This document shows positions 1-57,224 of a DNA stretch of 64,000 nucleotides, in pieces (within the stretch, counting starts at the first letter, position 1; the number at the start of each line of letters is the position of its first letter). Under the pieces are notes generated by a model, which was not told the origin of the DNA, did not search any database, and worked only from the letters and a program-made list of their open reading frames with translations. Origin of the DNA: Pseudomonadota bacterium (GTDB lineage: Bacteria > Pseudomonadota > Gammaproteobacteria > JAKAQQ01); the NCBI GenBank assembly GCA_027365475.1, contig DAHXNI010000012.1, positions 3,456 to 67,455 of the forward strand, read 5' to 3'. Made by a program: the position numbers and the translations under genes.

Positions 1-22
1 ATTGCCGGGACCGTTTTATCGA

Positions 23-796
23 ATGAAGATATTCTCCCTGGGTATGGCATTCCAGTCGATCACCGATGGTGCTTATGTCGGTATCCTCGCCTTGGTCTTC
101 GGACTGATTAGTGCCGGGACCGCGCTTTTCGTGCACCGCTCGCGCCTCGCGATGGCAAGTCTCGTGTTCGTGATGGGCGGCCTTCTGGCCTTCGGAGTCC
201 CATACTACTGGCTGCAAAAAGCCGAATCGGTTCCTCCCATCCATGACATCACGACCGATCCTGCGCATCCGCCCGCGTTCGTCGCACTATTGCCGCGCCT
301 TGCACACATTCCGAATTCTCCGGTCTATGGCGGGGGCAATGCGCGTGCGCGCAAGATCGAGCGCGCATCGGTGATCGGATTTGCGACCCGGGGGGAAGGG
401 CGCAGGAATCCCAAGGCTGCGCTCGTAGTCAAAAACTGCAAAAAGTGGTCGCCCCGCTGCCTTTCGACTGTTCAGTCGGTTTATTATCCGGATATTCATC
501 CTTTGATTTTCAAGGGAAAGCGTCTGGCACAAGTGTATGCTGCCACACTGGCGATCGTGCGCCGCCGGGGCTGGAAAGTGGTTTTTGCAAGCCCAGGTAC
601 CGGCCGCATTGAAGCCGTTGCCCGAACAGGATGGTTTGGGTTCAAGGACGATGTGGCATTGAGGATCCAGGCCGTCTCTTCAGGCACGCGCGTCGATATG
701 CGTTCCGAATCGCGGATCGGTTTGTCCGATATCGGAAGAAATGCGGAGCGGGTTCATCGGTTTCTCCATGCGCTCAAGACGCATCTCGATGGGTGA
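23..796 (+). CDS. DUF1499-like membrane-anchored protein (start uncertain; ORF is open to the window edge at nt 2)
   Basis: ORF 2..796 with the first ATG at 23 (MKIFSLGM). It has two N-terminal hydrophobic segments. The C-terminal block GFKDDVALRI...SRIGLSDIGRNAERV is what I recall as DUF1499-like. The family call is from memory only. Confidence 0.4.
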   Translation: MKIFSLGMAFQSITDGAYVGILALVFGLISAGTALFVHRSRLAMASLVFVMGGLLAFGVPYYWLQKAESVPPIHDITTDPAHPPAFVALLPRLAHIPNSPVYGGGNARARKIERASVIGFATRGEGRRNPKAALVVKNCKKWSPRCLSTVQSVYYPDIHPLIFKGKRLAQVYAATLAIVRRRGWKVVFASPGTGRIEAVARTGWFGFKDDVALRIQAVSSGTRVDMRSESRIGLSDIGRNAERVHRFLHALKTHLDG

Positions 797-864
797 GAAG
801 ACCGGTTGCGTCACTCGTTTGAAGGCTGGTTCACCTCGTGCATGGTTTCTGAGTTCGCCCATCC

Positions 865-1575
865 GTGCATAGCAGGCAGAGCCTGTGGGTCCGTATCGCT
901 GTTCTGGCCGCTGTGGGCTGGGTGGCCGTGCGCCTGGGTCTTGTGCCATGGCTTCAGCTTGACCGTATTCAAGCCGAAATCGGGTACTTTCAGGAATTGG
1001 TCCGGCAGCACGAGATGCTTGCGCTTCTCATTTTGGGTGGGCTGTATTTTCTCACCACCGCGCTCAGTCTGCCCTTTGGCCTCTTCTTGTCGGTTCTACT
1101 CGGGTATCTTTTGGGCCGCTGGGTCGGGACCTCTCTCATCGTTTGTTCAGCGACGGCGGGTGCTCTGGTTCTGTTCATCCTCGCGCGCTGGTTCCTCGGC
1201 CGATGGATCCGGAATAGACTTGAACGGCAGCCTCAGGCCGCATTCATTGCTCGCGGCTTTGAACATCACGCCTTCAACTATCTCCTGCTCTTACGCCTGA
1301 TTCCGCTTTTCCCGTTCTGGCTGGTCAATCTGGTACCGGCTTTAACGGCGATCCGAACGCGTGATTATGTGGCTGCCACGTTTCTGGGTATTCTCCCCGG
1401 CAGTTTCGTATTCGCCAACTTCGGTGCGAGTCTCCGCCATTTCAAACTGGGCGATCCATGGTCAACCGAAACCGTGACCGCCTTGATGCTCATCATTCTG
1501 TTGAGCCTGCTGCCGGTCATCTATCGCCTCTGGAAAAAAAAGCGTCCAGGGATTGGGCCCGAGGTTCCGGGATGA
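865..1575 (+). CDS. TVP38/TMEM64 (DedA-related, SNARE-associated) family membrane protein
   Basis: GTG start at 865. The protein is multi-TM with LRLIPLFPFWLVNLVPALT and ATFLGILPGSFVFA blocks typical of the family. Its stop overlaps the next gene start (ATGA at 1572-1575). Confidence 0.65.
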   Translation: MHSRQSLWVRIAVLAAVGWVAVRLGLVPWLQLDRIQAEIGYFQELVRQHEMLALLILGGLYFLTTALSLPFGLFLSVLLGYLLGRWVGTSLIVCSATAGALVLFILARWFLGRWIRNRLERQPQAAFIARGFEHHAFNYLLLLRLIPLFPFWLVNLVPALTAIRTRDYVAATFLGILPGSFVFANFGASLRHFKLGDPWSTETVTALMLIILLSLLPVIYRLWKKKRPGIGPEVPG

Positions 1576-2330
1576 AAACCTCAACCGATGCAATAGGCGC
1601 TCGAGACGCGGCCGACCCTCCGGTTCCCCTCAGACTTTCCATCATCATTCCAGTGCGTAACGAAGCCCATGCTCTTGCGATCCAGGAAAGCACCCTGCTC
1701 GCACTTCGCAATCGGGGACACGAGGTGATTGTGGTCGATGGAGGCAGCCTGGATAGGAGTGTGGAGATCGCCAGACGTTTTGCGACTCACGTTCTGGTGA
1801 CTCCACCCGGTCGGGCCCGGCAGATGAATGCCGGTGCCGATGTGGCTTCCGGAGCCATTTTGCTTTTTCTCCACGCGGATGTTCTCCTGCCATCGGGTGA
1901 TTTCACAGATTGGCTGCCATCGCCGGAAAGCGGAGGGGCTCCAATCTGGGGATGCTTTCCGGTCCGGCTCGATTCCCCAAAGCGGCTCTACCGCCTGATT
2001 GCAGCAGGGATCAATGTTCGCGCACATGCGACCGGGGTGGTGAGCGGCGATCAGGCACTTTGGGTTCGGCGTGACTGTTTCGAGCGAATGGGCGGATTCG
2101 CGGAAATCCTGCTCATGGAAGACATTGAGCTGTCGAAGCGGCTCAGAAAACAAGGCCCACCCGTATCTTGCCGATCCCCGGTTACCGTATCCGCTCGGCG
2201 CTGGAAACAGGGGCACCCGATCCGTCTCGTGATCCGCATGTGGATACTCCGGATCGCCTATGCTTGTGGGGTCCCACCCCAATACTTGGTGGGTTTTTAC
2301 GACCGCAGCTATCCGCGCGATTGGAGTTGA
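1572..2330 (+). CDS. Family 2 glycosyltransferase, TIGR04283-like (transferase 2 of the rSAM/selenodomain- or arsenosugar-associated pair)
   Basis: The internal ATG at 1572 is coupled to the upstream stop. Motifs seen: LSIIIPVRNEA, EVIVVDGGSLDRS, GRARQMNAGA, LLFLHADVLLP. The longer ORF-track start at 1458 overlaps the previous gene and was rejected. Confidence 0.7.
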   Translation: MKTSTDAIGARDAADPPVPLRLSIIIPVRNEAHALAIQESTLLALRNRGHEVIVVDGGSLDRSVEIARRFATHVLVTPPGRARQMNAGADVASGAILLFLHADVLLPSGDFTDWLPSPESGGAPIWGCFPVRLDSPKRLYRLIAAGINVRAHATGVVSGDQALWVRRDCFERMGGFAEILLMEDIELSKRLRKQGPPVSCRSPVTVSARRWKQGHPIRLVIRMWILRIAYACGVPPQYLVGFYDRSYPRDWS

Positions 2331-2334
2331 GGGC

Positions 2335-3129
2335 ATGGCCATTGAGGTTTGGATCCGGATCGGCTCATTTGTAGGGCTGTTCATTCTTTTTTGTGCATTA
2401 GAGCGGATCTGGCCACGTCGTCCACGACGGACCCGAGGATTTTTCGGTAATCTTCTGCTCGCGCCACTGGGATCGCTCGCTTCCCGGATCCTGATCCCGG
2501 CCGGGCTTGTCCTGTTCGCCGCGAGCTGGAACTGGGGGCTTTTGCATTGGCTGGATCTCGATCCGCTGGCCGCAATTCCTCTGGGTGTGCTTGTGCTCGA
2601 TTTCATCATCTACCTTCAGCACCGGCTGTTTCACAGGATTCCCTGGCTCTGGCGGCTCCACCGTGTCCATCACAGTGATCTTGAACTCGACGTAACCAGT
2701 GGCATCCGGTTCCATCCTGGAGAAATCTTTCTCTCGACACTGGTCAAGCTGGCAGTGATCGCACTGCTCGGTCTGTCCGCTCCGGCCGTGCTTGTCTTTG
2801 AGATTCTGCTCAATGCGACCTCGCTTTTCAACCACAGTAATCTCGTCCTCGGAGCTTCGTGGGATCGGCGTCTGCGTAGAGTGGTCGTGACCCCCGCGAT
2901 GCATGAAATTCACCATTCCGCCTGGCCCGGTGAACTGGATCGGAACTTTGGTTTCAACTTTCCCTGGTGGGATCGCTGGCTCGGGACTTACCGTGTGCGA
3001 TCCAGTGCTCCGACGCCGATTCCGATCGGACTGCCCGGACAGGATGGGCGTTGTCTCGGGTTCTGGCAAATGCTCTGGGATCCCTTCCGGCACTGGCCAG
3101 AGATCAGATCGGAAACCCCGGTGTCATAG
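2335..3129 (+). CDS. Fatty acid hydroxylase / sterol desaturase superfamily membrane protein
   Basis: ATG at 2335, 5 nt after the previous stop. Three histidine boxes are present (HRLFH, HRVHHS, HEIHHS) alongside several TM segments. Confidence 0.75.
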   Translation: MAIEVWIRIGSFVGLFILFCALERIWPRRPRRTRGFFGNLLLAPLGSLASRILIPAGLVLFAASWNWGLLHWLDLDPLAAIPLGVLVLDFIIYLQHRLFHRIPWLWRLHRVHHSDLELDVTSGIRFHPGEIFLSTLVKLAVIALLGLSAPAVLVFEILLNATSLFNHSNLVLGASWDRRLRRVVVTPAMHEIHHSAWPGELDRNFGFNFPWWDRWLGTYRVRSSAPTPIPIGLPGQDGRCLGFWQMLWDPFRHWPEIRSETPVS

Positions 3130-3131
3130 CT

Positions 3132-3782
3132 GTGTGCGCACGTTCCGTGCAGGCATCCATCCCGATTCTGCTTTTTGCCAAGGCACCCGTGCCCGGTTCG
3201 GTCAAAACCCGGCTCATCCCCACGCTCGGTGCGGAGCAGGCAGCTGAGCTGGCCGAAACACTGGCGGAGGAAACCATTCAGGCGGCGCTCGCATCAGGCG
3301 TGGGACCGGTTTCGCTCTGGGGTGCGCCGGACGTATCGCATCCCTTTTTCAGGAGAATGGAAGAGCGCTATGACATCGCTCTTGAAACACAGGAGGGGAC
3401 TGATGTGGGTGTCCGCATGGGTCATGCGCTCGATACGCAACTGCACGATCATCCGGCCGCTATTCTGACGGGAACCGATCTCATGCACCCCACCCCGGAG
3501 CTTTACAGAGGTGCAGCTCGGGCATTGGCATCCGGAGCCCATGCGACACTCGCGCCGAGTGCCGACGGCGGGTATGTTCTGATCGGCTTGAGCCGGATGA
3601 TTCCAACTCTCTTCCGTGGGATAGCGTGGGGAGCTGATGGGGTTTGCGCGGAGACCCTTTGTCGTCTCGAAGCGCTGGGGTGCCCCTTTGTCCTCCTGCC
3701 GCTTCAGCGCGATCTCGATATCCCTGAAGATTATGCTGACTGGGTCACTGTGCACAACTCTGATTTTCTCATGGAGGGCTGA
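3132..3782 (+). CDS. DUF2064 / TIGR04282-like transferase (transferase 1 partner of the GT2 above)
   Basis: GTG at 3132, 3 nt after the previous stop. Motifs seen: ILLFAKAPVPGSVKTRL, ILTGTDLMHP, PSADGGYVLIGL, IAWGADGV. Confidence 0.65.
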   Translation: MCARSVQASIPILLFAKAPVPGSVKTRLIPTLGAEQAAELAETLAEETIQAALASGVGPVSLWGAPDVSHPFFRRMEERYDIALETQEGTDVGVRMGHALDTQLHDHPAAILTGTDLMHPTPELYRGAARALASGAHATLAPSADGGYVLIGLSRMIPTLFRGIAWGADGVCAETLCRLEALGCPFVLLPLQRDLDIPEDYADWVTVHNSDFLMEG

Positions 3783-4118: not shown

Positions 4119-4148
4119 TTGACAAGCGCAGGATATTTCGCTTAAAAT
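4119..4148 (+). promoter_or_regulatory. Candidate sigma70 promoter for the Hyf-like operon
   Basis: TTGACA at 4119-4124, a 17/18-nt spacer, then TTAAAAT at 4142-4148. It lies inside the only strongly AT-rich stretch upstream of 4253. Confidence 0.4.
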
Positions 4149-4252: not shown

Positions 4253-6310
4253 GTGGCCGATCCCAATCTGACGGAAGGAACGGTCTTGACGCTTGCTCTT
4301 GCCTACCTTGCGGTCGCCTCAGCTTTGCTGTCGGCACTGGTCGCGTTGGCAACCGATCGCTACCCCGTCGTATTCAAGATCACTTCTTTCGTGCTGCTTG
4401 GTGCAGCCGGCATCAGCGCGGTGGCTGCGGGCGTCATGAACCTGCTGTCCGGCAAGATCCATACCGCGCAACTGGGTCTGGGTTTGCCTTGGCTCGCCTG
4501 GCATCTGCGTCTTGATCCCTTGTCGGGCTTTTTCATGGCCGTGACGGGGATCGTGGTCTTGGCCGTGGCATTTTACGGTCCCGCATACGTGCGCCAGTAT
4601 CAGCATGGTCCGCAGCCCCTTTCGGTCCTGGGATTCTTTACCGGTCTGTTTGTCGCTGGCATGCTGCTCGTACTCATGGCAGACGATGCTTTCCTGTTCC
4701 TGGTTGCCTGGGAACTGATGTCGCTCTCGAGCTATTTTCTGGTCACTTACCAGCATCAGTATGCGTCCAACCGGAGGGCCGGGTATCTCTATCTTCTGAT
4801 GGCTGAAATCAGTGCGCTGCTCATCCTGTTGGCTTTTGGTGTTCTCGCGCAGTTCAGTCACAGTTTTGCCTTCCATGCCATGCGCCATGCTCAGGTTCCA
4901 CCTTTCTGGGCCACAACGGCCTTTGTGCTGGCGTTCCTCGGTTTTGGTTTGAAGGCGGGTCTGATTCCATTTCATGCATGGCTACCGGAAGCGCATCCCG
5001 TTGCACCCTCGCATATCTCCGCACTCATGAGTGGCCTCATGCTCAAGATCGCCGTGTATGGGCTGATTCGGTTTTCGTATGGCTTGCTCGCCCATATCCG
5101 CTGGGAATGGGGGCTTGTACTGCTACTCATGGGAACAGCCTCAGCTCTTTGGGGGGTGCTCTATGCCCTCATGCAACACGACCTCAAGCGACTGCTGGCG
5201 TACCACTCGGTCGAAAACATCGGGATCATTTTTATGGGGCTCGGCCTCTCCATGATCTTCATCGGCACCGGTCACCCGGTGCTCGGCGTACTGGGCCTGA
5301 TCGCTGCGCTCTACCATACCCTCAATCATGCGCTCTTCAAGAGCCTGCTCTTTCTCGGATCGGGCGCTATTCTCATGCGTACCCACGAAGGCGATCTTGA
5401 GCATATGGGTGGATTGATCCGGCGCATGCCACAGACCGCTTTTCTCTTTCTGATCGGCTGCCTCAGCATTTCTGCCCTGCCCCCGTTCAACGGTTTTGTC
5501 TCCGAGTGGCTGACCTTCCAGTCGGCATTGCAGGTCTCCGTGCTGTCCAACGCCGTGCTGCGTGCCATCATCCCGGTGACAGCAGCGCTGCTGGCATTGA
5601 CCGGCGCGTTGGCTGCCACCTGTTTCGTCAAAGTCTACGGGGTCGCCTTTCTGGGCCGGGCACGCACCCGTCGTATCCGTCACGCTCGTGAAGTGCACTG
5701 GAGCATGCGTCTGGCCATGGGAACGCTGGCCCTCCTGTGCCTTTTGTTTGGAGTCCTGCCGACTGTGACCATCCGCGTATTGGGATCGGTCACGAAGCTG
5801 TTGCTGCATCGGGGGCTGCCAAGTGCCTCAGTTCACGGCTGGCTGTGGCTGACGCCAGTCTCGGCTGGGGTGGCCTCCTACTCCGCTCCGCTGGTTGTGT
5901 TCGGCCTGCTTCTGGCGCTTGGAATCGGCTATGTGCTGCTCCACCCTCGCATGAGTAGTGGTGCGATCCGTCGTGTCTCAGCCTGGGACTGTGGATTTGG
6001 TGCTCTCAGTACGCGCATGCAGTACACGGCAACCGCTTTTTCGATGCCCATCCGCCGTATCTTCAATCCAGTCTGGCTGGTCGACGAATCCACGACGGTT
6101 CACATGGATCCACGGGAGCCGCTCCGGGTTGCTTCAGTCGAGTACCAGCTGCATATCGGTGACCGTTTCTGGCCGATGCTCTACGAACCGGTCAGCCGCT
6201 GGGTGTTGTCTGCCGCACGCTATGTCAGCCGAATCCAGACCGGTCGCGTGCGAACGTATCTGGCATACTCCTTTGTCACCCTGCTGGTTCTGTTGTGGCT
6301 CATCCGCTGA
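4253..6310 (+). CDS. HyfB/NuoL-like antiporter-type membrane subunit of a group-4-hydrogenase-related (Ehr-like) complex
   Basis: 685 aa polytopic protein, GTG start. It carries the WLPEAHPVAPSHISALMSG and HTLNHALFKSLLFL blocks typical of NuoL/HyfB-type subunits. Confidence 0.85.
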   Translation: MADPNLTEGTVLTLALAYLAVASALLSALVALATDRYPVVFKITSFVLLGAAGISAVAAGVMNLLSGKIHTAQLGLGLPWLAWHLRLDPLSGFFMAVTGIVVLAVAFYGPAYVRQYQHGPQPLSVLGFFTGLFVAGMLLVLMADDAFLFLVAWELMSLSSYFLVTYQHQYASNRRAGYLYLLMAEISALLILLAFGVLAQFSHSFAFHAMRHAQVPPFWATTAFVLAFLGFGLKAGLIPFHAWLPEAHPVAPSHISALMSGLMLKIAVYGLIRFSYGLLAHIRWEWGLVLLLMGTASALWGVLYALMQHDLKRLLAYHSVENIGIIFMGLGLSMIFIGTGHPVLGVLGLIAALYHTLNHALFKSLLFLGSGAILMRTHEGDLEHMGGLIRRMPQTAFLFLIGCLSISALPPFNGFVSEWLTFQSALQVSVLSNAVLRAIIPVTAALLALTGALAATCFVKVYGVAFLGRARTRRIRHAREVHWSMRLAMGTLALLCLLFGVLPTVTIRVLGSVTKLLLHRGLPSASVHGWLWLTPVSAGVASYSAPLVVFGLLLALGIGYVLLHPRMSSGAIRRVSAWDCGFGALSTRMQYTATAFSMPIRRIFNPVWLVDESTTVHMDPREPLRVASVEYQLHIGDRFWPMLYEPVSRWVLSAARYVSRIQTGRVRTYLAYSFVTLLVLLWLIR

Positions 6311-7254
6311 TTGCCTGGGCGCTGGCGCTCCTGCAGACGCTGCTGTTTATTGCGAGTGCACCACTTCTGGCGGGTTGGATCAAATGTGTGCGGTGCGTAC
6401 TCCAGAACCGCGCCTCTCCATCTGTGTTGCAGCCTTATCGTGATCTCGGAAAATTGTTTCGCAAAAAAGTGGTCCTGGCAGAGGAGGCGTCCTGGCTGTT
6501 TCGGTCGACGCCTTATATCGTACTGGGCACGATGATACTGGCCGCCGCCGTCATTCCACTAGTGACCGTTCGCCTTCCGACCGACGCCATTGCGGATGTC
6601 ATCGTGCTGGTCGGGTTTCTTGCATTGGGTCGTTTCTTTCTGGCGCTGGCGGGTCTCGATATCGGTACCTCATTTGGGGGCATGGGGTCGTCGCGTGAGA
6701 TGATGGTGGCCTCCCTGGCCGAGCCGGCCATGCTGATGGCCGTCTTTACCCTCTCCATGACGGCATCGAGTACCAACCTCTCGACGGCGATGCACTATCT
6801 GCTTCAAAGCGGGCTCGTACTGAGACCGGCGTTCGTGTTCACGGCGGCCGGTTTGATGATGGTCGCGATTGCGGAAACCGGGCGCTTGCCAGTCGATAAC
6901 CCTGCGACGCATCTTGAGTTGACCATGATTCACGAGGGAATGATCCTCGAATACAGTGGACGTCATCTGGCGCTCATGGAGTGGGCTTCCGAAATCAAGC
7001 TCATGATTTATGCAGTCCTGATTGCGGATATCTTTCTGCCATGGGGTATTGCGACGCGGTTTACAGCGTGGGCACTGGTGATGGGTGTGGTTGCAATTGG
7101 AGCGAAGCTTGCGCTTTTGGTGGTACTGCTTGCCGTCATTGAGAGCGGATTAGCCAAGATGCGATTGTTTCGCGTGCCGGAGTTCCTGAATCTTGCGTTC
7201 CTCCTGTGTCTGCTCGGTCTCCTCAGTCATATCATTCTGGAAGTGGGAATCTGA
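6295..7254 (+). CDS. HyfC/HycD/NuoH-like membrane subunit
   Basis: 319 aa with NuoH-type motifs (GSSREMMVASLAEP, ETGRLPVDNPATHLELTMIHEG). The GTG start overlaps the upstream gene end. Confidence 0.85.
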   Translation: MAHPLIAWALALLQTLLFIASAPLLAGWIKCVRCVLQNRASPSVLQPYRDLGKLFRKKVVLAEEASWLFRSTPYIVLGTMILAAAVIPLVTVRLPTDAIADVIVLVGFLALGRFFLALAGLDIGTSFGGMGSSREMMVASLAEPAMLMAVFTLSMTASSTNLSTAMHYLLQSGLVLRPAFVFTAAGLMMVAIAETGRLPVDNPATHLELTMIHEGMILEYSGRHLALMEWASEIKLMIYAVLIADIFLPWGIATRFTAWALVMGVVAIGAKLALLVVLLAVIESGLAKMRLFRVPEFLNLAFLLCLLGLLSHIILEVGI

Positions 7255-7925
7255 TGGTTGCAGTCGGCCTCTATACGCAGGCGATTCGGATGCTGGCTGC
7301 CCTGGTTTTGTTCACCTCGTTTGCTTTGCTCGCGCAAACGCGCATGGCTGCACTGATCCGTCTGTTTGCCTGGCAGGGCGCACTTCTGGCTGTGACGACC
7401 GCGCTGGTTGCGCTGGTCACCCATCAGCCGCGCCTGTATTTGTCTGCCCTGCTCACACTGGGCCTCAAGGCGCTCCTCATCCCCTGGTTCCTGAACCGGC
7501 TGGTCATTCGCCTGGAATTACAGCATGAAACGGAAGACCTCCGGGGTAACGCAATGGTCTTGCTGGGCGCTGCTGCCTTGACCGTGTTCAGTTACTACGT
7601 CGTGATGCCGATTGTCGAGCTTTCCACCCTGGTTACCCGGAATGTCATCGCCGTCAGCTTGGCGATCGTCCTGCTCGGGATGCTGCTGATCATTGTGCGG
7701 AGGAAAGCCGTCACCCAGGTGGTCGGATTCATGTGCATGGAGAACGGCCTCTTTTTCGCTGCAGTGGTATCCACTTACGGAATGCCGATGGTCGTTGAGC
7801 TGGGAGTCGCTTTCGATGTGCTGGTTGCCTCCATCCTGTTTGGCGTGTTCTTCCTGCATCTCCGCGATAGCATCGATTCGTTGGATGTGGACCGGCTCAA
7901 CCGGCTTCGGGAGGCAGACGAATGA
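7254..7925 (+). CDS. HyfE-like small polytopic membrane subunit (NuoK-related)
   Basis: The ATG at 7254 shares one base with the upstream stop (TGATG). The 223 aa protein is all hydrophobic helices and occupies the HyfE position between the NuoH-like and NuoN/M-like genes. Confidence 0.7.
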   Translation: MVAVGLYTQAIRMLAALVLFTSFALLAQTRMAALIRLFAWQGALLAVTTALVALVTHQPRLYLSALLTLGLKALLIPWFLNRLVIRLELQHETEDLRGNAMVLLGAAALTVFSYYVVMPIVELSTLVTRNVIAVSLAIVLLGMLLIIVRRKAVTQVVGFMCMENGLFFAAVVSTYGMPMVVELGVAFDVLVASILFGVFFLHLRDSIDSLDVDRLNRLREADE

Positions 7926-9397
7926 ATCCGCATGCCGATTCGATCTATCCGGTGCTGCTGATTCCTCTCTTGGGCGCCATCGCGCTCGGCGCCATCGGTC
8001 ATAGCCGTCGCGCCGGCTGGGTCAACATTGCGATCTCTGCCGCAACATTCATGGCATCTCTCAGGCTGGCCCTGGGGGTATGGGAACATGGCCCGCTGCT
8101 CACCACGAGCGGAATGTTCTATATCGACGCATTCAATGTCTACCTCCTGGTGCTGACCACTTTTGTCGGTCTCACGACAGCGATCTTCTCGCGCAACTAC
8201 ATGCTGGATGAAATGAAACAGGGGCGCGTGAACAGCAAGCGACTGCAGCTGTACCATGCCATGTATCAGGGGTTTCTGTTCACTATGCTGCTTGCGCTGG
8301 CGACCAATAATCTCGGTATTCTCTGGGTTGCCATGGAAGGCGCCACTCTCGCTACCGTTCTTCTGGTCAGTCTTTACCGTACACCGGAATCGATTGAGGC
8401 TGCCTGGAAATATTTCATTCTGTGTGGTGTGGGGATTGCCCAGGCGTTGTTTGGTACGGTCTTGCTGTTCTTTGCCGCTGAACGGGTCATTCCTAATCGG
8501 CATCAGGCGCTGCTCTGGAGTGTCCTCTATGCGCATGCGGCCCGCCTGGATCCTGCTGTCATGGGCCTGGCGTTCGTCTTTCTGCTCGTGGGTTATGGCA
8601 CCAAAGTCGGGCTGGTGCCCCTGCACAACTGGCTACCGGATGCCCATTCAGAAGGTCCGACGCCCATATCGGCCGTTCTTTCGGGATTGCTGCTCAATGT
8701 CGCGCTCTACGCTCTGGTTCGCATCAAGATGCTTGCTGATCCGACTCTCGGCGTGCTCCCGGGTGAACTCATGATGGGGTTTGGGATGCTATCGTTCATC
8801 GTGGCCGTGCTGTTTTTGCATCGACAGCGCGATATCAAACGGCTCTACAGTTATTCCTCTATTGAGCACATGGGGCTCATGACATTCGGGTTCGGGATCG
8901 GGGGGGCACTTGCGACTTTTGCCGCGCTTCTGCACATGACGGTCCACTCGCTGACCAAGTCATCCATTTTTGTCACAGCTGGACATGCCGCGCACATTGC
9001 GGGCACCCAGAGCATTGACCGGATCCGGGGACTGATTCGCACCCAACCAGCCGTTGGGTGGGGGCTGCTCATTGGAACGGCAGCCATTGCCGGATTCCCC
9101 CCCTTCGGCATTTTCACCAGTGAGTTCCTGCTCCTTGCAGCTACCATGCAAAGCTGGCCTTGGCTTACCGCACCTCTGCTGATCGGGTTGGTCGTTGCCC
9201 TGGCGGGATTGTTCCGGCAGGTACAGCCCATGGTGTACGGAGAAGCTCTGCCAGGCCAGAGACACGCCCGAACCAGCATGCTGCCGGTTGCTGTGCATCT
9301 GGCACTTGTATTGTGGTTGGGCCTTGCGATTCCCGCTTTTCTGGCGCAATGGTTCAATCACGCCACTTTTCTGATTTCCGGGAGTTCGCTGCTGTGA
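7922..9397 (+). CDS. HyfF/NuoN-M-like antiporter-type membrane subunit
   Basis: ATGA overlap at 7922-7925. 491 aa with the WLPDAHSEGPTPISAVLSG and SSIEHMGLM blocks. Confidence 0.85.
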   Translation: MNPHADSIYPVLLIPLLGAIALGAIGHSRRAGWVNIAISAATFMASLRLALGVWEHGPLLTTSGMFYIDAFNVYLLVLTTFVGLTTAIFSRNYMLDEMKQGRVNSKRLQLYHAMYQGFLFTMLLALATNNLGILWVAMEGATLATVLLVSLYRTPESIEAAWKYFILCGVGIAQALFGTVLLFFAAERVIPNRHQALLWSVLYAHAARLDPAVMGLAFVFLLVGYGTKVGLVPLHNWLPDAHSEGPTPISAVLSGLLLNVALYALVRIKMLADPTLGVLPGELMMGFGMLSFIVAVLFLHRQRDIKRLYSYSSIEHMGLMTFGFGIGGALATFAALLHMTVHSLTKSSIFVTAGHAAHIAGTQSIDRIRGLIRTQPAVGWGLLIGTAAIAGFPPFGIFTSEFLLLAATMQSWPWLTAPLLIGLVVALAGLFRQVQPMVYGEALPGQRHARTSMLPVAVHLALVLWLGLAIPAFLAQWFNHATFLISGSSLL

Positions 9398-9460
9398 TCT
9401 GCGGGAGCGTAGTGTGGTGGGCTCCGGGGAGCAAGACCCCGGTGCGAGTGGTCGTGTCAG

Positions 9461-11050
9461 GTGTCTGAGCCATCCGTCTGGGCAGTCGATTTTGCGGCCC
9501 GATTCCAAGAGCCTGCGGTGGCCGTTCGTGCCAGTGGCCAACCAGTGCGGGTATCCCAGTACCGGCTGTCTGTTGCGCCAGAAGAATGGGGACGTGTCGC
9601 TGAAGAAGCAGCCCATGTGGGTCTGCGCTGGGGGGGACTTTGGGCCGAGGACCGTGATGCACGGATCGAACTGACCGTCGTGCTGGAGCAGTGCGGCATC
9701 TATCTCATGGTCCGGACCCGAACGACGGATCTCGCTCCATCGGTTGCGTCTCATACCGCGTACTACCCTGCAGCTGGCCGGTTCGAGCGTCGCTTGACGG
9801 ATCTGTTTGGGATCACGTTTAGGGGTCAGGCCGACTCTCGTCGCTGGATCCGGCATTTGGCCTGGTCCGAGAATGAGTTTCCATTGCGCAAAGCCTACAG
9901 TTTGGTGGGGCACGATGGGGCCGCGGTCCGGCCGGATTCGGGATATCCTTTTCTTGAGGCTCAAGGTGCTGGCGTATACGAAATCCCTGTCGGACCGATC
10001 CATGCAGGTATCATCGAACCCGGGCATTTTCGGTTCCAGGCGGTGGGCGAGTCAATCTTGAATCTCGAAGTGAGACTCGGATATGTGCACAAGGGCATTG
10101 AGAAAACTGCCGAAGGTCGCGATCCGGATGGTCTGGCCCGTCTTGCGGGACGTGTATCGGGAGATGCAACCGTGGCTCACACATGGGCAGCCTGCATGGC
10201 GATGGAGCGTGCGGCAGGCATTGAGGTACCCGTACGTGCGCTGGCCTTGCGTGCGATCCTGGCGGAACGGGAACGGATCAGCAATCATCTGGGGGATATC
10301 GGTTCGATCTGCGGCGATGTCGGTTTCGCGTTCGGACAGTATCAGTTCGGGCGGTTGCGGGAACGCTGTCTGAGACTTCATGCGGAACTGTTCGGGCATC
10401 GGTTGGCGATGGATACGGTCGTCCCGGGTGGCGTGCAACCTGATTTACCGACTGACGGTGCGCATCGCTTGTTGGAAGACGGCATTGAGCTTAGACAGGA
10501 GCTTGAGGAGCTCAATGCCATTCTGAGCGAGAATTCCTCACTTCAGGACCGATGGTGCATGACGGGCATCCTTCCCACCGAGACGGCACGGATGCTCGGT
10601 GTCTTGGGATATGTCGCTCGCGCGAGTGGGGTCGATTTCGACCTCCGCCGGGATGTGCCTTACGCACCATACGATACCCTCAAGGTGCGTGTGCCGATAG
10701 CGACTGTGGGTGACGTGGCTGCACGAGTTCGGGTTCGTCAGGAAGAAATCGATGTGGCGCTGGGCCTCATTGATGAGCTGGTCAGCGTGTTGCCGGGAGG
10801 CCCCTGCCGGGTGCCGTGGTCGGTGCCCGCTTCGGACGCAGAGGGGTTGGGGTGTGTGGAAGGCTGGCGCGGCGAACATCTGGCTTATGTGCGTTTCGGG
10901 CCGGATAACACCATCGCCCGGTACTACCCCCGGGATCCGAGCGTGTTCAACTGGCAAGCACTGGAAAAGCTGATCATCGGTAACATCGTGCCGGATTTTC
11001 CGGTATGCAATAAATCCCTGAACGGGTCGTACTCCGGACATGATCTCTGA
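9461..11050 (+). CDS. NuoC-NuoD/HycE-HyfG-like large subunit lacking the [NiFe] cysteine ligands (Ehr large-subunit-like)
   Basis: PVGPIHAGIIEPGHFRF, RLGYVHKGIEK and ERERISNHLGD are conserved. The ligand motifs read RVSGDATVAH and SLNGSYSGHDL-stop instead of RVCGICxxxH and SLDPCxxCxDR. Confidence 0.85.
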   Translation: MSEPSVWAVDFAARFQEPAVAVRASGQPVRVSQYRLSVAPEEWGRVAEEAAHVGLRWGGLWAEDRDARIELTVVLEQCGIYLMVRTRTTDLAPSVASHTAYYPAAGRFERRLTDLFGITFRGQADSRRWIRHLAWSENEFPLRKAYSLVGHDGAAVRPDSGYPFLEAQGAGVYEIPVGPIHAGIIEPGHFRFQAVGESILNLEVRLGYVHKGIEKTAEGRDPDGLARLAGRVSGDATVAHTWAACMAMERAAGIEVPVRALALRAILAERERISNHLGDIGSICGDVGFAFGQYQFGRLRERCLRLHAELFGHRLAMDTVVPGGVQPDLPTDGAHRLLEDGIELRQELEELNAILSENSSLQDRWCMTGILPTETARMLGVLGYVARASGVDFDLRRDVPYAPYDTLKVRVPIATVGDVAARVRVRQEEIDVALGLIDELVSVLPGGPCRVPWSVPASDAEGLGCVEGWRGEHLAYVRFGPDNTIARYYPRDPSVFNWQALEKLIIGNIVPDFPVCNKSLNGSYSGHDL

Positions 11051-11119
11051 ATTCCATCGATCCAGTCATGGGGCGCGGGCCGGTACAGGTGTTCCGGATT
11101 TCTCGCGAGGTCGTCAAAC

Positions 11120-11644
11120 ATGTTCCGCCTATTAAACAAAATCCACCGTGTGGGCGGGGTGAGCGAGCCACTTGTGCAAGAATCAGGGGGCCTGGCCTTT
11201 GAGGCCGTGGGGGCGCGTCTCAGGGAGGCCGTGGGGCAGCGGTTCCGAGGCAGTTTGGCGATCCGAGAAGTGGATGCCGGTTCCTGTAACGGCTGTGAAC
11301 TTGAGATTCACGCGCTCAACAATGTGTATTACAGCATCGAGCGATACGGTATCCATTTCGTCGCTTCGCCGCGTCACGCCGATCTGCTTTTGGTCACGGG
11401 CCCTGTCTCGCGGCACATGCAAGCGGCACTCTTGAGCGCCTATGTCGCCATGCCTGAACCGAAACTGGTGCTCGCGATCGGCAATTGCGGCGCGGATGGA
11501 GGGGAGTTCGGAACGTCCTACGCAAGCTGCGGTGCGGTCCAGAATGTCATCCCGGTGGACGGCATCATCCGCGGTTGTCCACCCACGCCGCTCGCGCTCA
11601 TGCGAGGAATCCTCTCCCTCATCGATCGGAAAACACCTGGGTGA
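11120..11644 (+). CDS. NuoB/HycG/HyfI-like small subunit, [4Fe-4S] ligands retained
   Basis: GSCNGCELE, ASPRHADLLLVTG, GNCG and GCPPTP blocks are present, giving four candidate cluster cysteines. Confidence 0.85.
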   Translation: MFRLLNKIHRVGGVSEPLVQESGGLAFEAVGARLREAVGQRFRGSLAIREVDAGSCNGCELEIHALNNVYYSIERYGIHFVASPRHADLLLVTGPVSRHMQAALLSAYVAMPEPKLVLAIGNCGADGGEFGTSYASCGAVQNVIPVDGIIRGCPPTPLALMRGILSLIDRKTPG

Positions 11645-11712: not shown

Positions 11713-11745
11713 GCAAATTAGCGCCATTCCACGTAAGGTAGGGGT

Positions 11746-12120
11746 GAAACGCAGAGTGGACTAGACAGTCGCTCCGTCTTTGGGCGGAGAGGAAAGTCCG
11801 GGCTCCACGGATCAGGGCGCCAGGTAACGCCTGGGGGGCGCGAGCCTACGGAAAGTGCCACAGAAAAGATACCGCCGAAACGTCGCAAGGCGTTGGCAAG
11901 GGTGAAATGGTGCGGTAAGAGCGCACCGCGCTGCCGGTAACGGCAGTGGCAGGGTAAACCCCGCCCGGAGCAAGACCGAATAGGGGGGCAGGTCGCCTCA
12001 AAAACGACACGTGTGATCCGCACGGCTCCCGGGTTGGTCGCTTGAGTGCAACGGTGACGTTGCATCGAGATGCATGGCTGTCCGCGACAGAACCCGGCTT
12101 ATCGGCCCACTCTGCGTTTC
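11746..12120 (+). ncRNA. rnpB: RNase P RNA, bacterial type A
   Basis: Near-identical universal blocks are present: GAGGAAAGTCCGGGCTCC, CAGGTAACGCCTGGG, GGTAAGAGCGCACC and ACAGAACCCGGCTTA. P1 pairing is GAAACGCAGAGTGG (5') with CCACTCTGCGTTTC (3'). Confidence 0.92.
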
Positions 12121-12179
12121 CTCACGAACGCTACTGCTGCATCTCGTATCCCTGGGTACGTTAGAAATGCCGGGGCGTG

Positions 12180-12911
12180 TTATGGAGTCGAGCAGCGAAC
12201 CTGCGTATCAAAACTGAGATGGATGTTCGCCTCGTGCCGGACCAAAGGCATCGACTGGGCGGGTTTCGGCCGGATCGATGCGCTCATGGTGAGAAGCGGG
12301 CGGAACGTCTCAGGGCGCGGCGCACGCAGGATCTCAATGTGGAGAATATCTGACCGGGCATAGCCGAGGGCCTGACAGGCCTTTTGTGCGATCTTTTTGA
12401 TCCGTTTAAAGCCTGTGACGATGAGATGCTCGCGGGCCCGATTCACTCCGAGCGGCTGATAGTTGATGGTGGGGTCGATGAGACGGGTTTCGAGCTGGCC
12501 GATGAGCTGACTGATGAGCGTGAGATTCCGTGTGCGGAGGGTGATGGATCCGGTGGCAAGCCATTGCCGGATTTGCCCGTTGACCCAGTTAATCGGCACG
12601 GTCCCGAGGCGGTTGATGAAGAAATGGATCTCACTTTGCACCGGTTTGAGCTGCGTGACAGCCCAGCGCAGGTTCCGATTCATTTCGATTTGGGCGCGAT
12701 GGGGGGTGGGTGCGCGGCTTTGCGCCGTGAGGGTTGCCTTGAGTTCGGTCGGGACATGCGTTTTCAGGCTGAGGTCAAAGCTGATGGTCGGGCCCGTGCG
12801 TGTCGCGGCCCAAGTGGTTCCTGCGAACGTCAGGATTGCGACGAGCGCGAAAGTTCCCGTCAGTTTCCGGACGACTGGACAGGTTGATCTTGATTGACAA
12901 TTGGAAATCAC
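12180..12911 (-). CDS. Secreted SIMPL/DUF541-like protein (tentative)
   Basis: 243 aa ORF with a signal-peptide-like segment (LTGTFALVAILTFAGTTWA). The C-terminal AREHLIVTGFKRIKKIAQKACQALGY block resembles the SIMPL family. The family call is weak. Confidence 0.4.
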   Translation of the reverse strand: MISNCQSRSTCPVVRKLTGTFALVAILTFAGTTWAATRTGPTISFDLSLKTHVPTELKATLTAQSRAPTPHRAQIEMNRNLRWAVTQLKPVQSEIHFFINRLGTVPINWVNGQIRQWLATGSITLRTRNLTLISQLIGQLETRLIDPTINYQPLGVNRAREHLIVTGFKRIKKIAQKACQALGYARSDILHIEILRAPRPETFRPLLTMSASIRPKPAQSMPLVRHEANIHLSFDTQVRCSTP

Positions 12912-31259: not shown

Positions 31260-33035
31260 ATGTTTCTGCGCGCGACGACCCGCAAGAAGGACGGCAAAGA
31301 GCACCGCTATTTCAGCGTGGTGGAGAACCGGCGCGTGCGTGGTGGACGCGTGCTGCAACGGCACGTGCTGTATCTGGGAGAGATCAACTCGTCGCAAGAA
31401 CTCGCCTGGCGTAAATCGATCGAAGTGTGGGATGAGGGCACGCGCTACCCGCGCACGCTGGCTTTGTTTCCAGAGGATCGTTGTGAGGGGTTCGCCCCTG
31501 ACGAGTCGATCGTGCGACTCAAGCTCGCTGAGCTGCGGCTGGAGCGGCCGCGTCAATGGGGCGCGTGCTGGCTTGCGCTCGAGCTGTGGCAACAGCTCGG
31601 GCTCGGGGAGTTCTGGGGTGAGCGGCTGACGGTGAGTCGCAAAGGCACACGCTGGGATCAGGTGCTGTTGGTGCTGGTGGCGTACCGGCTGTTGTCGCCC
31701 GGCAGCGAGTGGCGCTTGCACCGGCAATGGTTTGCGCAGAGTGCGCTCGCGGATCTGTTGGGTGGCGATGCCGGCCTCGCCGATATCCACACGCTCTACG
31801 CCTGTCATGACCGGCTGCTCGCACACCAGCAGGCGCTGTTTGATCATCTGGTCGGACGCTGGCGGGATCTGTTCCATGCTCGTTTCGATGTGCTGCTCTA
31901 TGACTTGACGAGTACCTATTTTGAGTCCGAGCCGCGTCGCGACGAGGACGACAAGCGCCGCTTTGGCTATTCCCGCGATCACCGCCCCGACTGCGTGCAA
32001 GTGGTGATTGCCCTGGTAGTGACTCCCGAGGGGTTACCACTCGCCTACGAGGTGCTCCCCGGCAATACCGCCGATTCGACCACCTTGCAGGCGTTCCTCG
32101 CGCGCATCGAACACCAGTATGGCCAGGCCAGACGGGTCTGGTGCATGGATCGTGGGGTGCCAACCGAGGCGGTGCTCGCGCAGATGCGCGCGAGCGACCC
32201 GCCGGTGCAGTATCTCGTCGGCACCCCGAAGGGACGCTTGACGCGCCTCGAACAGGCGCTGCTGACGCAGCCCTGGCACGCCGTCCGTCCCGGCGTGAAG
32301 GTCAAACTGCTCCCGGAGGACGATGAGCTGTACGTGTTCGCCGAGAGCACGGACCGGATCGCCAAGGAACGTGCGATGCGTCGCCGGCAACTGAAGTGGC
32401 TGTGGGCGCGGTTGCAGAAACTGGCGAGCATGACGCTCACGCGCGATGCCTTGCTGATGAAGCTCGGCAGCGCCAAGACGCAGGCGCCGGCGGCTTGGCG
32501 CCTGATCGACGTGCAGGTCCACGCGCAGGGTGCGCAGTTCACCTATCACCTTGATCGGCACGCGCTCCGGCAGGCGCGCCGGCGCGAAGGCCGCTACCTG
32601 TTACGTACCAATCTCACCGAGTCCGATCCCGGAAAGCTCTGGAACTACTACCTGCAACTGGTCGCCGTGGAGGAAGCGTTCAAAACGCTCAAGGGCGATC
32701 TCGCCGTCCGCCCCATCTTCCACCAAGAGGAGCGGCGCATCGAAGCGCACATCTTTATTGCCTTCTTGGCCTACTGCCTCCACGTCACGCTCGGCCAGCA
32801 ACTGAAAGCGTTCGCACCGGGCCTGACCGCGCGCAGCGTGCTCGAGAAATTCTCCGCCGTGCAGATGATCGATGTGTACGTCCCGACCACCGATGGACGC
32901 GAGCTCAGCCTCACGCGTTACACCCAGCCAGAACCAGAACTGAAGGTGCTGCTCGAGAAACTCAATCTGACCTTGCCCGCCCAACCGCCACCGAAAATCA
33001 CCGCTGCCCAGGTCACGGCGTCCCAGCCGCTGTAG
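31260..33035 (+). CDS. IS1634-family DDE transposase
   Basis: 591 aa. The N-terminus MFLRATTRKKDGKEHRYFSVVENRRV...VLYLGE and the C-terminal EEAFKTLKGDLAVRPIFH block are typical of IS1634-type transposases, as I recall them. Confidence 0.8.
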   Translation: MFLRATTRKKDGKEHRYFSVVENRRVRGGRVLQRHVLYLGEINSSQELAWRKSIEVWDEGTRYPRTLALFPEDRCEGFAPDESIVRLKLAELRLERPRQWGACWLALELWQQLGLGEFWGERLTVSRKGTRWDQVLLVLVAYRLLSPGSEWRLHRQWFAQSALADLLGGDAGLADIHTLYACHDRLLAHQQALFDHLVGRWRDLFHARFDVLLYDLTSTYFESEPRRDEDDKRRFGYSRDHRPDCVQVVIALVVTPEGLPLAYEVLPGNTADSTTLQAFLARIEHQYGQARRVWCMDRGVPTEAVLAQMRASDPPVQYLVGTPKGRLTRLEQALLTQPWHAVRPGVKVKLLPEDDELYVFAESTDRIAKERAMRRRQLKWLWARLQKLASMTLTRDALLMKLGSAKTQAPAAWRLIDVQVHAQGAQFTYHLDRHALRQARRREGRYLLRTNLTESDPGKLWNYYLQLVAVEEAFKTLKGDLAVRPIFHQEERRIEAHIFIAFLAYCLHVTLGQQLKAFAPGLTARSVLEKFSAVQMIDVYVPTTDGRELSLTRYTQPEPELKVLLEKLNLTLPAQPPPKITAAQVTASQPL

Positions 33036-41428: not shown

Positions 41429-42232
41429 CTAAATCTGGCAGTGCTGGATCTGCCAGTGGACAGCGGTTTTGACCGCGGTGGGGCGCTCACAGAGGTTGGG
41501 CTGGGTCAGGAAACGGATGAACAACCGGTGCCGGTTGGCGCTGACCTCAGGAAAATAAGCGCAGCCGGGATCCAGAGCGATCCGGATCAGGCTCATGGTG
41601 GCAAGCGGGGTGAGATCCTGTTCAAAACCCCCGTTGGGCGCTACCCGATCCGTAAAGTCGGCGCTCTCGCGCAGCAACTTGAGATAGAAGTGGATGGCCG
41701 ATTCGATCGGTGCGAGTTCACCGTACCAGGCATCCAATGTGGCCTGACGCGCGGTTGGTTCAAGCTGGATGAACCGTCCATACGCCGGAACATCGAAGTC
41801 GGTTGCGCCTCCCGGCAGAACCGCCTTGCTTTTTATGAGATTGAGGAGTTCGCAGTTTTTGAGACCTTCACCCACGCGTTCCTGGGGGTCGAGTAGTGCC
41901 CGTGTTTTTTGCGAGAACTCGGCCAGCAGGCGATCGAGCCGCTTGGGATCGAGATGCGGGAGGGCGCGGAGCTGACTCCAGGTGAGTTGGACACGCTCAA
42001 ACTCGCGCAGGATCTCCTTTCGTATGTCACCACGCTGGAGCAGGATACCGAGATCGAGGAGGTGTCCGATCCGTGCATGCAAGGCGCCGGTCCCAGACAC
42101 CTGACTGAGATCCCGGTTATGCAAGAAAAGCCATTCGAGTCTCAGGAAGAGGCGGATCCGCTCATTCAGGGGATGTTCATAGATGCAGCGTCGATCCGTA
42201 CCAGCTCCGGTCGTGAACAGCGGCTTGCTCAC
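41429..42232 (-). CDS. zapD: Cell division protein ZapD
   Basis: YEHPLNERIRLFLRLEWLF near the N-terminus. GTG at 42232 forms a GTGA overlap with the coaE stop (plus strand TCAC at 42229-42232). The track ATG at 42322 would lie 90 nt inside coaE. Confidence 0.8.
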   Translation of the reverse strand: MSKPLFTTGAGTDRRCIYEHPLNERIRLFLRLEWLFLHNRDLSQVSGTGALHARIGHLLDLGILLQRGDIRKEILREFERVQLTWSQLRALPHLDPKRLDRLLAEFSQKTRALLDPQERVGEGLKNCELLNLIKSKAVLPGGATDFDVPAYGRFIQLEPTARQATLDAWYGELAPIESAIHFYLKLLRESADFTDRVAPNGGFEQDLTPLATMSLIRIALDPGCAYFPEVSANRHRLFIRFLTQPNLCERPTAVKTAVHWQIQHCQI

Positions 42233-43727: not shown

Positions 43728-43784
43728 GAAGCTGCTCTCGGACCGGAGTCCCGGGATGGAATCATGTGAGCGGAGGGGGTGGTC

Positions 43785-45002: not shown

Positions 45003-45013
45003 ATTCCACCCGC

Positions 45014-54737: not shown

Positions 54738-54752
54738 GGAGTGAATTCCATC

Positions 54753-57166: not shown

Positions 57167-57224
57167 GGTCGTACCGTTCGCATGGTCTCAAAATCGCGAA
57201 AGCGTCCGATGAATGGATCCCGTC

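Follow-up and report, generated by a model that had tools for sequence, protein, structure and literature searches.

Complexes of the energy-converting hydrogenase related (Ehr) class resemble group 4 [NiFe]-hydrogenases and lack the RxCGxCxxxH and DPCxxCxxH/R motifs, and their function is given as unknown (PMC4378227, PMC6349859, PMC10284858, PMC12342949). In the cited Ehr literature they are placed phylogenetically close to group 4f. The hyfBCEFGI genes of Acidithiobacillus ferrooxidans (AFE2149-54) were at first read as a group 4 hydrogenase. Their catalytic subunit is classified as a non-hydrogenase by HydDB and the cluster was not detected in H2-grown cells (PMC7735108), and Ehr expression in Nitrospira moscoviensis was unresponsive to H2 (PMC12342949). 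Further examples are EhrA-S of Geobacter sulfurreducens (GSU0739-45), the same six genes in Cupriavidus (Rmet_4666-71 in C. metallidurans and H16_A2196-2201 in C. necator), the Ehr complexes of Nitrospira, Sulfobacillus and Methylacidiphilum, and Rv0082-87 of Mycobacterium tuberculosis. Here we describe a member of this class from a gammaproteobacterial contig (DAHXNI010000012.1). The window that we analysed is the whole 64-kb stretch, and its large-subunit gene at 9461-11050 had been assigned to the Ehr class in an earlier note made from the DNA letters alone. Our comparison supports this assignment, as the operon composition matches published Ehr clusters and the large subunit appears to belong to a six-subunit Ehr-type ('hyfBCEFGI-like') membrane complex derived from group 4 [NiFe]-hydrogenases. 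We found homology to group 4 large subunits and NuoD, absence of the Cys residues of both ligand motifs (L1 and L2), and NuoB-, NuoH- and NuoL/Mrp-like partners encoded alongside. The window copy is a routine member of a described, widespread and enigmatic class and adds nothing unusual to it.

The large subunit and its former Ni-Fe site

Upon translation, the open reading frame (ORF) at 9461-11050 proved free of internal stops; the database copy of the protein, P0001 (510 aa), uses a later start. Pfam domains were assigned to residues 59-150 (PF00329, NuoC-like), to the NuoD/49-kDa family (PF00346) and to residues 211-277 (PF00374, the NiFe large-subunit family, matched in its N-terminal part). 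In a phmmer search against all PDB sequences the top match was E. coli HycE (7z0s_E, E 8e-63), followed by MbhL, Aquifex NuoCD, Nqo4 and MbsL. No solved Ehr structure was present among the PDB entries searched, and HycE stays the best match. The HMMER alignment to HycE is confident over both ligand motifs and pairs 'drvCgiCgfahs' with 'grvSgdAtvaht' and 'sldpCysC' with 'slngSysG'. Translation and this alignment confirmed the earlier claim that the four [NiFe] Cys are replaced by Ser, Ala, Ser and Gly, and the coordinates of the two motifs (Table 1) are exact. The earlier note had asked whether other Cys of the protein might occupy the ligand columns. None of its eight Cys does so, and C516, seven residues upstream, pairs with an Ile of HycE. 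The codons at the four positions (TCG for S233, GCA for A236, TCG for S523, GGA for G526) each lie at least two substitutions from TGY, so single sequencing errors, also raised earlier, cannot account for the loss of the ligands.

The scaffold blocks PVGPIHAGIIEPGHFRF, RLGYVHKGIEK and ERERISNHL are all present in the large subunit exactly as had been claimed, and Glu186 and His189 of the beta1-beta2 loop, which form the proton relay, are retained. The chain terminates three residues past the fourth ligand position, in agreement with the reported lack of a C-terminal extension. Its end coincides with the end of mature HycE after cleavage. An AlphaFold2 model of the large subunit alone, computed from a 24-sequence alignment, reached a predicted template modelling score (pTM) of 0.81, and its top fold in the PDB was HycE (7z0s_E) with a TM score of 0.82. 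In this model the hydrogenase/NuoD type of fold is intact. Since all four ligand Cys are replaced, no [NiFe]-hydrogenase activity should be possible. Judged from its sequence, the large subunit cannot hold a Ni-Fe centre and hence would neither make nor consume H2.

Table 1. Features of the Ehr operon and its upstream region in the window
Feature	Position	Strand	Description
Candidate sigma-70-type promoter	4119-4148	+	TTGACA-18 nt-TAAAAT, 11/12 matches; ~105 nt 5' of first gene
HyfB/NuoL-like antiporter-type membrane subunit, 685 aa	4253-6310	+	Pfam PF00361; NCBIfam 'hydrogenase 4 subunit B', 837 bits, above cut-off
HyfC/HycD/NuoH-like membrane subunit, 319 aa	6295-7254	+	Pfam PF00146
HyfE-like small membrane subunit	7206-7925	+	NuoK-like C-terminal half; NCBIfam 'hydrogenase 4 membrane subunit' E 2e-25; PF00420 weak
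HyfF/NuoN-M-like antiporter-type membrane subunit, 491 aa	7922-9397	+	NCBIfam 'hydrogenase 4 subunit F', 739 bits, above cut-off
Large subunit (EhrL/HyfG-like), 529 aa	9461-11050	+	NuoC-like N-terminal domain fused to HycE/NuoD-like domain
Former L1 motif RVSGDATVAHT	10151-10183	+	Cys1 to Ser233, Cys2 to Ala236; family-specific Asp235 between
Former L2 motif SLNGSYSGHDL + stop	11015-11050	+	Cys3 to Ser523, Cys4 to Gly526
Small subunit (EhrS/HyfI/HycG/NuoB-like), 174 aa	11120-11644	+	Pfam PF01058

The replaced residues are shared by related proteins. The close-homologue set was made up of the best 120 homologues in a collection of 5.8 billion proteins, at 56-100% identity. These carry R[VI]SGDxxxxH, with ...CNKSxN[GA]SYSGxDL at the C-terminal end, save for two single Cys (RVCGD in P0054, RVSGDC in P0088). 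In a library of 1.84 billion representatives, 7557 sequences matched the large subunit at E <=1e-3. We then compared the ligand columns of about 120 full-length representatives of 50%-identity clusters, those nearest to the query. Eighty of them lack any Cys at these columns (mostly S-x-S-G) and 18 have all four. The Cys-less representatives have residues of their own close to the old site: Asp235 is found in 67 of the 80, as against Val or Ala in the Cys-containing sisters, Asp286 in 65 as against Gly, and Asn521 in 61 as against Glu, while S523 and G526 each occur in 73. At the second ligand position, where our protein has Ala, Ser or Thr is commoner in the Cys-less family. The scaffold residues, His181, Glu186, His189 and Asp528 are common to the Cys-less group and true hydrogenases. 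The large subunit itself falls in a sub-branch within the Gammaproteobacteria that is marked by the motifs RVSGD[AST]TV.H and PVCNKS.NGSYSG.DL and has about 60% identity to members from Methylococcales and Chromatiales.

The large-subunit gene is under strong purifying selection and thus not degraded, and the earlier description of it as a conserved fold rather than a decayed gene is borne out by this selection together with the model scores given above. Because the Cys-less group has its own conserved residues near the old site, we infer that the active-site pocket was remodelled and then held fixed, which would be the signature of a new function and not of loss. Nothing but the similarity to hydrogenases speaks for taking the gene as a decaying pseudogene, as a sequencing artefact or as one for a true hydrogenase with unconventional ligands. 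Against these explanations stand the intact, translationally coupled ORFs, the same residues in hundreds of species, the distance of all four codons from Cys, the lack of Cys on the ligand columns and the lack of a hyp motif in the window. As far as sequence can tell, they are refuted. The maturation genes had been proposed for a search of the rest of the genome; the part covered is the 64-kb window, in which regular expressions applied to six frames found no HypB, HypC, HypD, HypE or HypF motif; no hycI turned up in the window either. Nor did this approach reveal another NiFe L1/L2 motif there.

The six-gene operon and known complexes

The large-subunit gene is the fifth of six co-directional genes, tightly packed or overlapping, that span 4253-11644 in a hyfB-C-E-F-G-I-like order (Table 1). 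The upstream promoter candidate is a consensus match only, and such sites are not above shuffled expectation in this region. The HyfE-like ORF of 239 aa opens at GTG 7206, and ATG 7254, which forms a TGATG overlap with the stop of the HyfC-like gene, gives 223 aa. Since relatives measure 223-226 aa, ATG 7254 is most likely the true start. Matches of the operon proteins to the NCBIfam models for NuoD, NuoB and NuoH all fall below the curated cut-offs.

The small subunit aligns to HycG (7z0s_G, E 1e-32) with all four Cys of the proximal [4Fe-4S] cluster matched (C56, C59, C123 and C153). The pattern CxxC...GxC...GCPP is kept in 48 of 51 called homologues, the exceptions looking like gene-calling artefacts. 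A NuoI/HycF/HyfH-type subunit with 2x[4Fe-4S] is found neither in the operon nor adjoining it in the related loci inspected. The membrane subunits retain charged residues throughout: E154, K234, K265, H359/K363 and E418 of the HyfB-like subunit are kept in 68-73 of 74 homologues, E139, K228, H342/K346 and E401 of the HyfF-like subunit in 77-80 of 80, and E179 of the HyfE-like subunit in 58 of 60. Thus, in the antiporter-like subunits, the Glu of transmembrane helix TM5, the Lys of TM7, the Lys of TM8 (HyfB), the HxxxK motif and the Glu of TM12 occur in essentially all homologues. Many acidic residues of the HyfC-like subunit are invariant over 45 homologues, including D101, D122, E135, E143, E194, D201, E208, E214 and E219. 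Strong constraint acts on the Fe-S site, on the remodelled polar pocket and on the ion pathways through the membrane.

Such pathways could also belong to an Mrp-like cation/proton antiporter, redox-independent or redox-gated, in which the hydrogenase-derived module would serve as a cap, be it structural or regulatory, and the Fe-S cluster as a structural element or redox sensor. Consistent with this, the membrane subunits are more similar to those of the closest relatives (90% identity for HyfB, 92% for HyfF) than the large subunit is (81%), neither an electron-input module nor a partner enzyme is present, and the canonical substrate ligands for both NiFe and quinone are absent. However, the motifs of the former active site are almost invariant in the family, the four Fe-S Cys and the Glu of the proton relay are retained, and conservation is tighter than a passive cap should require. 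We therefore regard the antiporter as improbable.

The operon has the NuoL-, NuoH-, HyfE- and HyfF-like membrane subunits, the Cys-less large subunit and the NuoB-like small subunit of Ehr complexes, together with the same loss of the L1/L2 Cys and no dedicated partner enzyme, and does not differ from them in substance. With HycE and Hyf (formate hydrogenlyase 2, group 4a) it shares the NuoC-NuoD fusion, the scaffold blocks, the Glu and His of the beta1-beta2 loop and the hyfB/C/E/F/G/I order; the nearest Cys-containing sisters of the large subunit are those of group 4f. Unlike HycE/Hyf, the window complex is without the Ni-Fe Cys, the C-terminal extension, HyfA/D/H/J/R, HycB and HycF, and neither formate dehydrogenase nor hyp genes lie near the operon in the window. 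A group 4 [NiFe]-hydrogenase was rejected on the lack of both the four Cys ligands and the NuoI/HycF/HyfH-type subunit.

Complex I has homologous modules, one N2-like [4Fe-4S] cluster in its NuoB homologue, a Glu/Lys chain and, likewise, no Ni-Fe site. Its core comprises 11-14 subunits, among them NuoA, NuoJ and NuoI. The window operon, in contrast, has six genes only, with no NuoA, NuoJ, NuoI or NADH module, and its beta1-beta2 loop is of the hydrogenase type. Complex I proper is ruled out by this six-gene composition and by the missing equivalents of Tyr87 and His38, which are considered below with the proposed mechanism.

MBS/MBX of Pyrococcus furiosus, the membrane-bound sulfane-sulfur reductase (6U8Y), is a group-4-derived complex that has lost H2 chemistry and still works as a redox-driven ion pump. 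It sets a precedent for catalysis on the proximal Fe-S cluster or close to it (PMC7684303). The large subunit of the window operon is distant from 6u8y_L (E 5e-32), and MbsL, unlike it, keeps the Cys at the first ligand position in the alignment. MBS further has a NuoI-like wire of three clusters (MbsN) and a 13-subunit Mrp-type arm, which the window operon does not have. An MBS/MBX-type sulfane-sulfur reductase was rejected on the distant match, the six genes and the lack of a NuoI-like subunit. The DAB system (DabAB) and cyanobacterial NDH-1(3/4)-CupA resemble the operon in using antiporter subunits of the complex I/Mrp type, but unlike DAB and NDH-1MS it has no DabA (PF10070) or CupA-type subunit among its six proteins. 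The remaining likeness to these systems is one of genomic context in other lineages only (SulP, beta-carbonic anhydrase, RuBisCO) and is absent from the window.

Related loci and their neighbours

A scan of one genome per GTDB species identified a relative in at least 591 species. They include Methylococcales, Chromatiales, metagenome-assembled genomes (MAGs) of Thiotrichales, Nitrospirota, Zetaproteobacteria, Burkholderiales, Rhizobiales, Azospirillum, Acidithiobacillus and Actinomycetota. Their gene order is B-C-E-F-G-I in nearly all of the approximately 88 genome loci with genes in view and in 62 of the 63 metagenome loci with at least three genes visible. It is also that of the loci of Acidithiobacillus, Thiomonas, Nitrospirota, Cupriavidus and Rhizobium, where the homologues are 43-51% identical. 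The same cluster is carried on plasmids or chromids of Rhizobium, Azospirillum, Cupriavidus, Paraburkholderia and others, where RefSeq labels the large subunits 'NADH-quinone oxidoreductase subunit C'; a nucleotide search of plasmids with the large-subunit gene gave no match.

The closest relative, locus L086 (89%), shares the flanks of the window, while the flanks of the 81% relatives L001 and L002 are wholly different. The conserved order together with differing flanks indicates that the six genes move as one module. At the left end of the window (2-3782, forward strand) lie genes for VTT/DedA-like, glycosyltransferase 2, fatty-acid hydroxylase family and DUF2064/TIGR04282 proteins, and these are syntenic with L086 and not with L001/L002. 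Since the flanks differ between L086 and the 81% relatives, the Ehr operon is placed in different chromosomal contexts within one lineage.

To survey the neighbours, we took the three nearest ORFs on each side of the operon at 84 non-redundant loci, called by a codon-usage model for each locus, and scanned the resulting 386 ORFs against Pfam. No universal partner gene was found among them, and in particular no ferredoxin, flavodoxin or formate dehydrogenase. The commonest families were SulP (19 of 386), XRE-type helix-turn-helix (HTH) proteins (12), two-component or sigma-54 regulators (about 10) and DUF2490 (6), all of them restricted to particular lineages. The six-gene module is thus autonomous.

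The SulP neighbours (PF00916) are the most frequent functional ones and occur in three positions relative to the operon. In Methylococcales loci they lie directly upstream of the hyfB-like gene (e.g. L004:3147-4781), often as a tandem pair and with gaps of 19-200 nt. In L167 a SulP gene is found within the operon, between the HyfF-like and large-subunit genes (8150-9813), and in Burkholderiales-type loci directly downstream of the small subunit (L076:2947-4416, L082:11899-12915, L112:11954-13681). A beta-carbonic anhydrase gene is directly upstream in the 81%-identical L001/L002 (L001:3319-3969) and nearby in L018. Form II RuBisCO is encoded directly downstream in a Thiomonas MAG (L079, 6374-7753) and nearby in a Thiotrichales MAG (L019, 6138-6461); in L037 (13886-15870) cbbLS and a LysR regulator gene are close to the operon, as is cbbL in L137. 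Published loci point the same way: AFE2149-54 of A. ferrooxidans adjoins cbbM (AFE2155; PMC2621215), also in strain NFP31, and in Acidithiobacillus caldus one copy is found together with carbon-fixation genes and another abuts a beta-carbonic anhydrase gene (PMC3826726).

These linkages, which recur in several independent arrangements, suggest that the complex may serve inorganic-carbon or anion uptake. A pump driven by redox chemistry or by the proton motive force would then work with SulP bicarbonate transporters, carbonic anhydrase and RuBisCO, either by supplying the Na+/H+ gradient for a SulP-type bicarbonate/anion symporter or, in analogy to NDH-1(3/4)-CupA and DAB, by energy-coupled, vectorial CO2 hydration in the former Ni-Fe pocket, lined by Asp, Ser and His. 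Against this, the 64-kb window contains no SulP, carbonic anhydrase or RuBisCO gene (tblastn was used for carbonic anhydrase), and no such neighbour is found at most loci, including those of heterotrophs (Rhizobium pRL11, Paraburkholderia) and the majority of those from soil metagenomes. With the NCBIfam models for BicA, DauA and sulfate permease the SulP proteins all stay under the cut-offs, which leaves their substrate unassigned. In addition, no CupA- or DabA-like subunit is present, and CO2 hydration needs no Fe-S cluster, yet the cluster is retained. The neighbour counts for SulP, carbonic anhydrase and RuBisCO are also phylogenetically clumped and come without a proper background model. 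We therefore consider a role in inorganic-carbon or anion uptake possible but doubtful, and it seems more doubtful still that Ehr constitutes a third complex-I-derived family for acquiring inorganic carbon or anions beside NDH-1(3/4)-CupA and DAB.

The neighbours also bear on the annotation tradition for A. ferrooxidans, Cupriavidus and methanotrophs, according to which the complex would be the membrane/hydrogenase part of a formate hydrogenlyase-like system, with formate dehydrogenase encoded elsewhere. Geobacter Ehr subunits are more abundant in formate-grown cells (PMC7894505), and a pairing of formate dehydrogenase with Ehr has been proposed in Margulisbacteria and Saganbacteria (PMC6349859), which would fit. 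However, H2 evolution is impossible without the Ni-Fe site, the operon is without wiring subunits of the HycB or HycF type, and no molybdopterin oxidoreductase is present among the frequent neighbours (386 ORFs) or the scanned window genes. The latter are 20 genes downstream of the cell-division cluster, where neither formate dehydrogenase nor another molybdopterin oxidoreductase was found; they are housekeeping genes (insertion sequence (IS), lpxC, secA, pilBCD, glycosyltransferases, leucine catabolism). We regard a formate hydrogenlyase-like system as highly improbable.

Several loci show additional genes next to the operon. In L073 (4559-4813), L089 (3539-3835) and at least seven further loci, a small XRE-type HTH gene (about 85-100 aa) adjoins the start of the HyfB-like gene or overlaps it; this linkage spans Alpha-, Beta- and Gammaproteobacteria, including Rhizobium pRL11, and is absent from the window. 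The gene is likely to encode a dedicated regulator. In L086 (3281-6766) a DDE_3 transposase gene lies just upstream of the operon and the HyfB-like protein is called at 474 aa rather than about 680, so that the gene may be disrupted there. Directly upstream of the operon, one locus from Nitrospirota carries a second gene for a NuoB-like small subunit (L042:3742-4278). In a locus from Zetaproteobacteria the operon is followed directly downstream by a second HyfB-like gene (L044:12168-14165), which may be part of a tandem second complex.

Proposed mechanism, surroundings and significance

Our overall reading is that the operon encodes a functional, ion-coupled Ehr complex that is not a hydrogenase and whose Fe-S cluster exchanges electrons with a low-potential carrier on one side and a membrane or pocket acceptor on the other. 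We give this reading as a whole a probability of slightly more than one half (about 0.55). Its parts differ in strength: we are confident that the complex is an Ehr-type non-hydrogenase, functional and ion-coupled, while the identity of the electron donor and acceptor is a guess. As a redox machine the complex would be self-contained, compact and coupled to the movement of ions. Its one Fe-S cluster would trade electrons directly with ferredoxin or flavodoxin, as a soluble low-potential carrier of general use, and the electrons would pass to an acceptor in the membrane or bound in the pocket, most plausibly a quinone bound in a non-canonical manner. Changes of charge or protonation at the pocket (Ser233, Asp235, Glu186, His189, Asp528) might then drive H+ or Na+ through the HyfC-, HyfE-, HyfF- and HyfB-like subunits. 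In the reverse mode, electrons would be driven uphill by the membrane potential to reduce the low-potential carrier.

A number of observations weigh against this reading. The first concerns the quinone. Tyr87 and His38 of Thermus thermophilus Nqo4 are the ligands of the quinone head group. In the HMMER alignment to 2fug_4, Tyr87 ('rmdY') falls on the invariant Gly234 and His38 ('pstHg') on Ile185. The quinone-like cavity that the earlier note had suggested looking for thus lacks the canonical complex I ligands, and for this reason a quinone acceptor is without sequence support. The second concerns the model, which is unreliable just where the pocket is formed, at residues 151-212 and 506-529, with a predicted local distance difference test (pLDDT) value below 50; the N-terminal sheet (151-212) and the C-terminal tail (506-529) normally pack on the small subunit and are poorly modelled alone. 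The third concerns wiring, as we know of no precedent for a donor and an acceptor both reaching one Fe-S cluster without a NuoI-like subunit. The missing NuoI-like wire and the missing canonical quinone ligands together seem to speak against a simple ferredoxin:quinone scheme. Moreover, among the 386 neighbour ORFs there is no recurrent linkage of the operon to a gene for ferredoxin or flavodoxin, and the genes that do recur beside it in some lineages (those for SulP, carbonic anhydrase and RuBisCO) hint at another physiological role. Finally, the literature on Ehr, hyfBCEFGI, Rv0082-87, H16_A2196-2201 and rhizobial hyf yielded no demonstrated function, and a 2025 survey of Nitrospirales still calls the function of Ehr unknown (PMC12342949).

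Downstream of the operon, 109 nt 3' of the small-subunit gene, lies a full-length rnpB gene for RNase P RNA (RF00010, 320 bits; 11753-12117, forward strand). It sits between the Ehr operon and the SIMPL and mraZ genes, and the ORFs that overlap it, 11718-12065 on the reverse and 12070-12363 on the forward strand, are spurious. Rfam and tRNA scans of the window gave rnpB alone. Further on, an IS-type DDE transposase ORF (PF01609, 591 aa) at 31260-33035 on the forward strand is placed between the end of the cell-division (dcw) cluster and lpxC, a junction that is normally tightly conserved. The window also contains zapD, the type IV pilus genes pilD, pilC and pilB, and a complete liu-like cluster for the catabolism of leucine, which encodes HMG-CoA lyase, biotin carboxylase, enoyl-CoA hydratase, carboxyltransferase and thiolase, all at 41429-46765 and 51823-58415 on the reverse strand. 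These genes are housekeeping context of an ordinary kind and show the host to be no strict minimal autotroph.

The carriers of Ehr include methanotrophs, nitrifiers, iron and sulfur oxidisers, rhizobia, Cupriavidus and M. tuberculosis, and to our knowledge no Ehr complex has an assigned activity or a solved structure. Annotations routinely give Ehr genes the wrong names, 'hydrogenase 4', 'formate hydrogenlyase' or 'NADH-quinone oxidoreductase subunit C', and genome surveys therefore inflate the H2 and formate metabolism that they infer. Our analysis sharpens the problem to that of a rigid, autonomous six-gene module with one Fe-S cluster, a new conserved Asp in the former active site and intact ion pathways. 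The physical linkage to SulP, carbonic anhydrase and RuBisCO genes in several autotroph and methanotroph lineages provides a concrete hypothesis that is testable in genetically tractable hosts, and suggests that Ehr may there energise the uptake of bicarbonate or anions, or take part in the handling of CO2.

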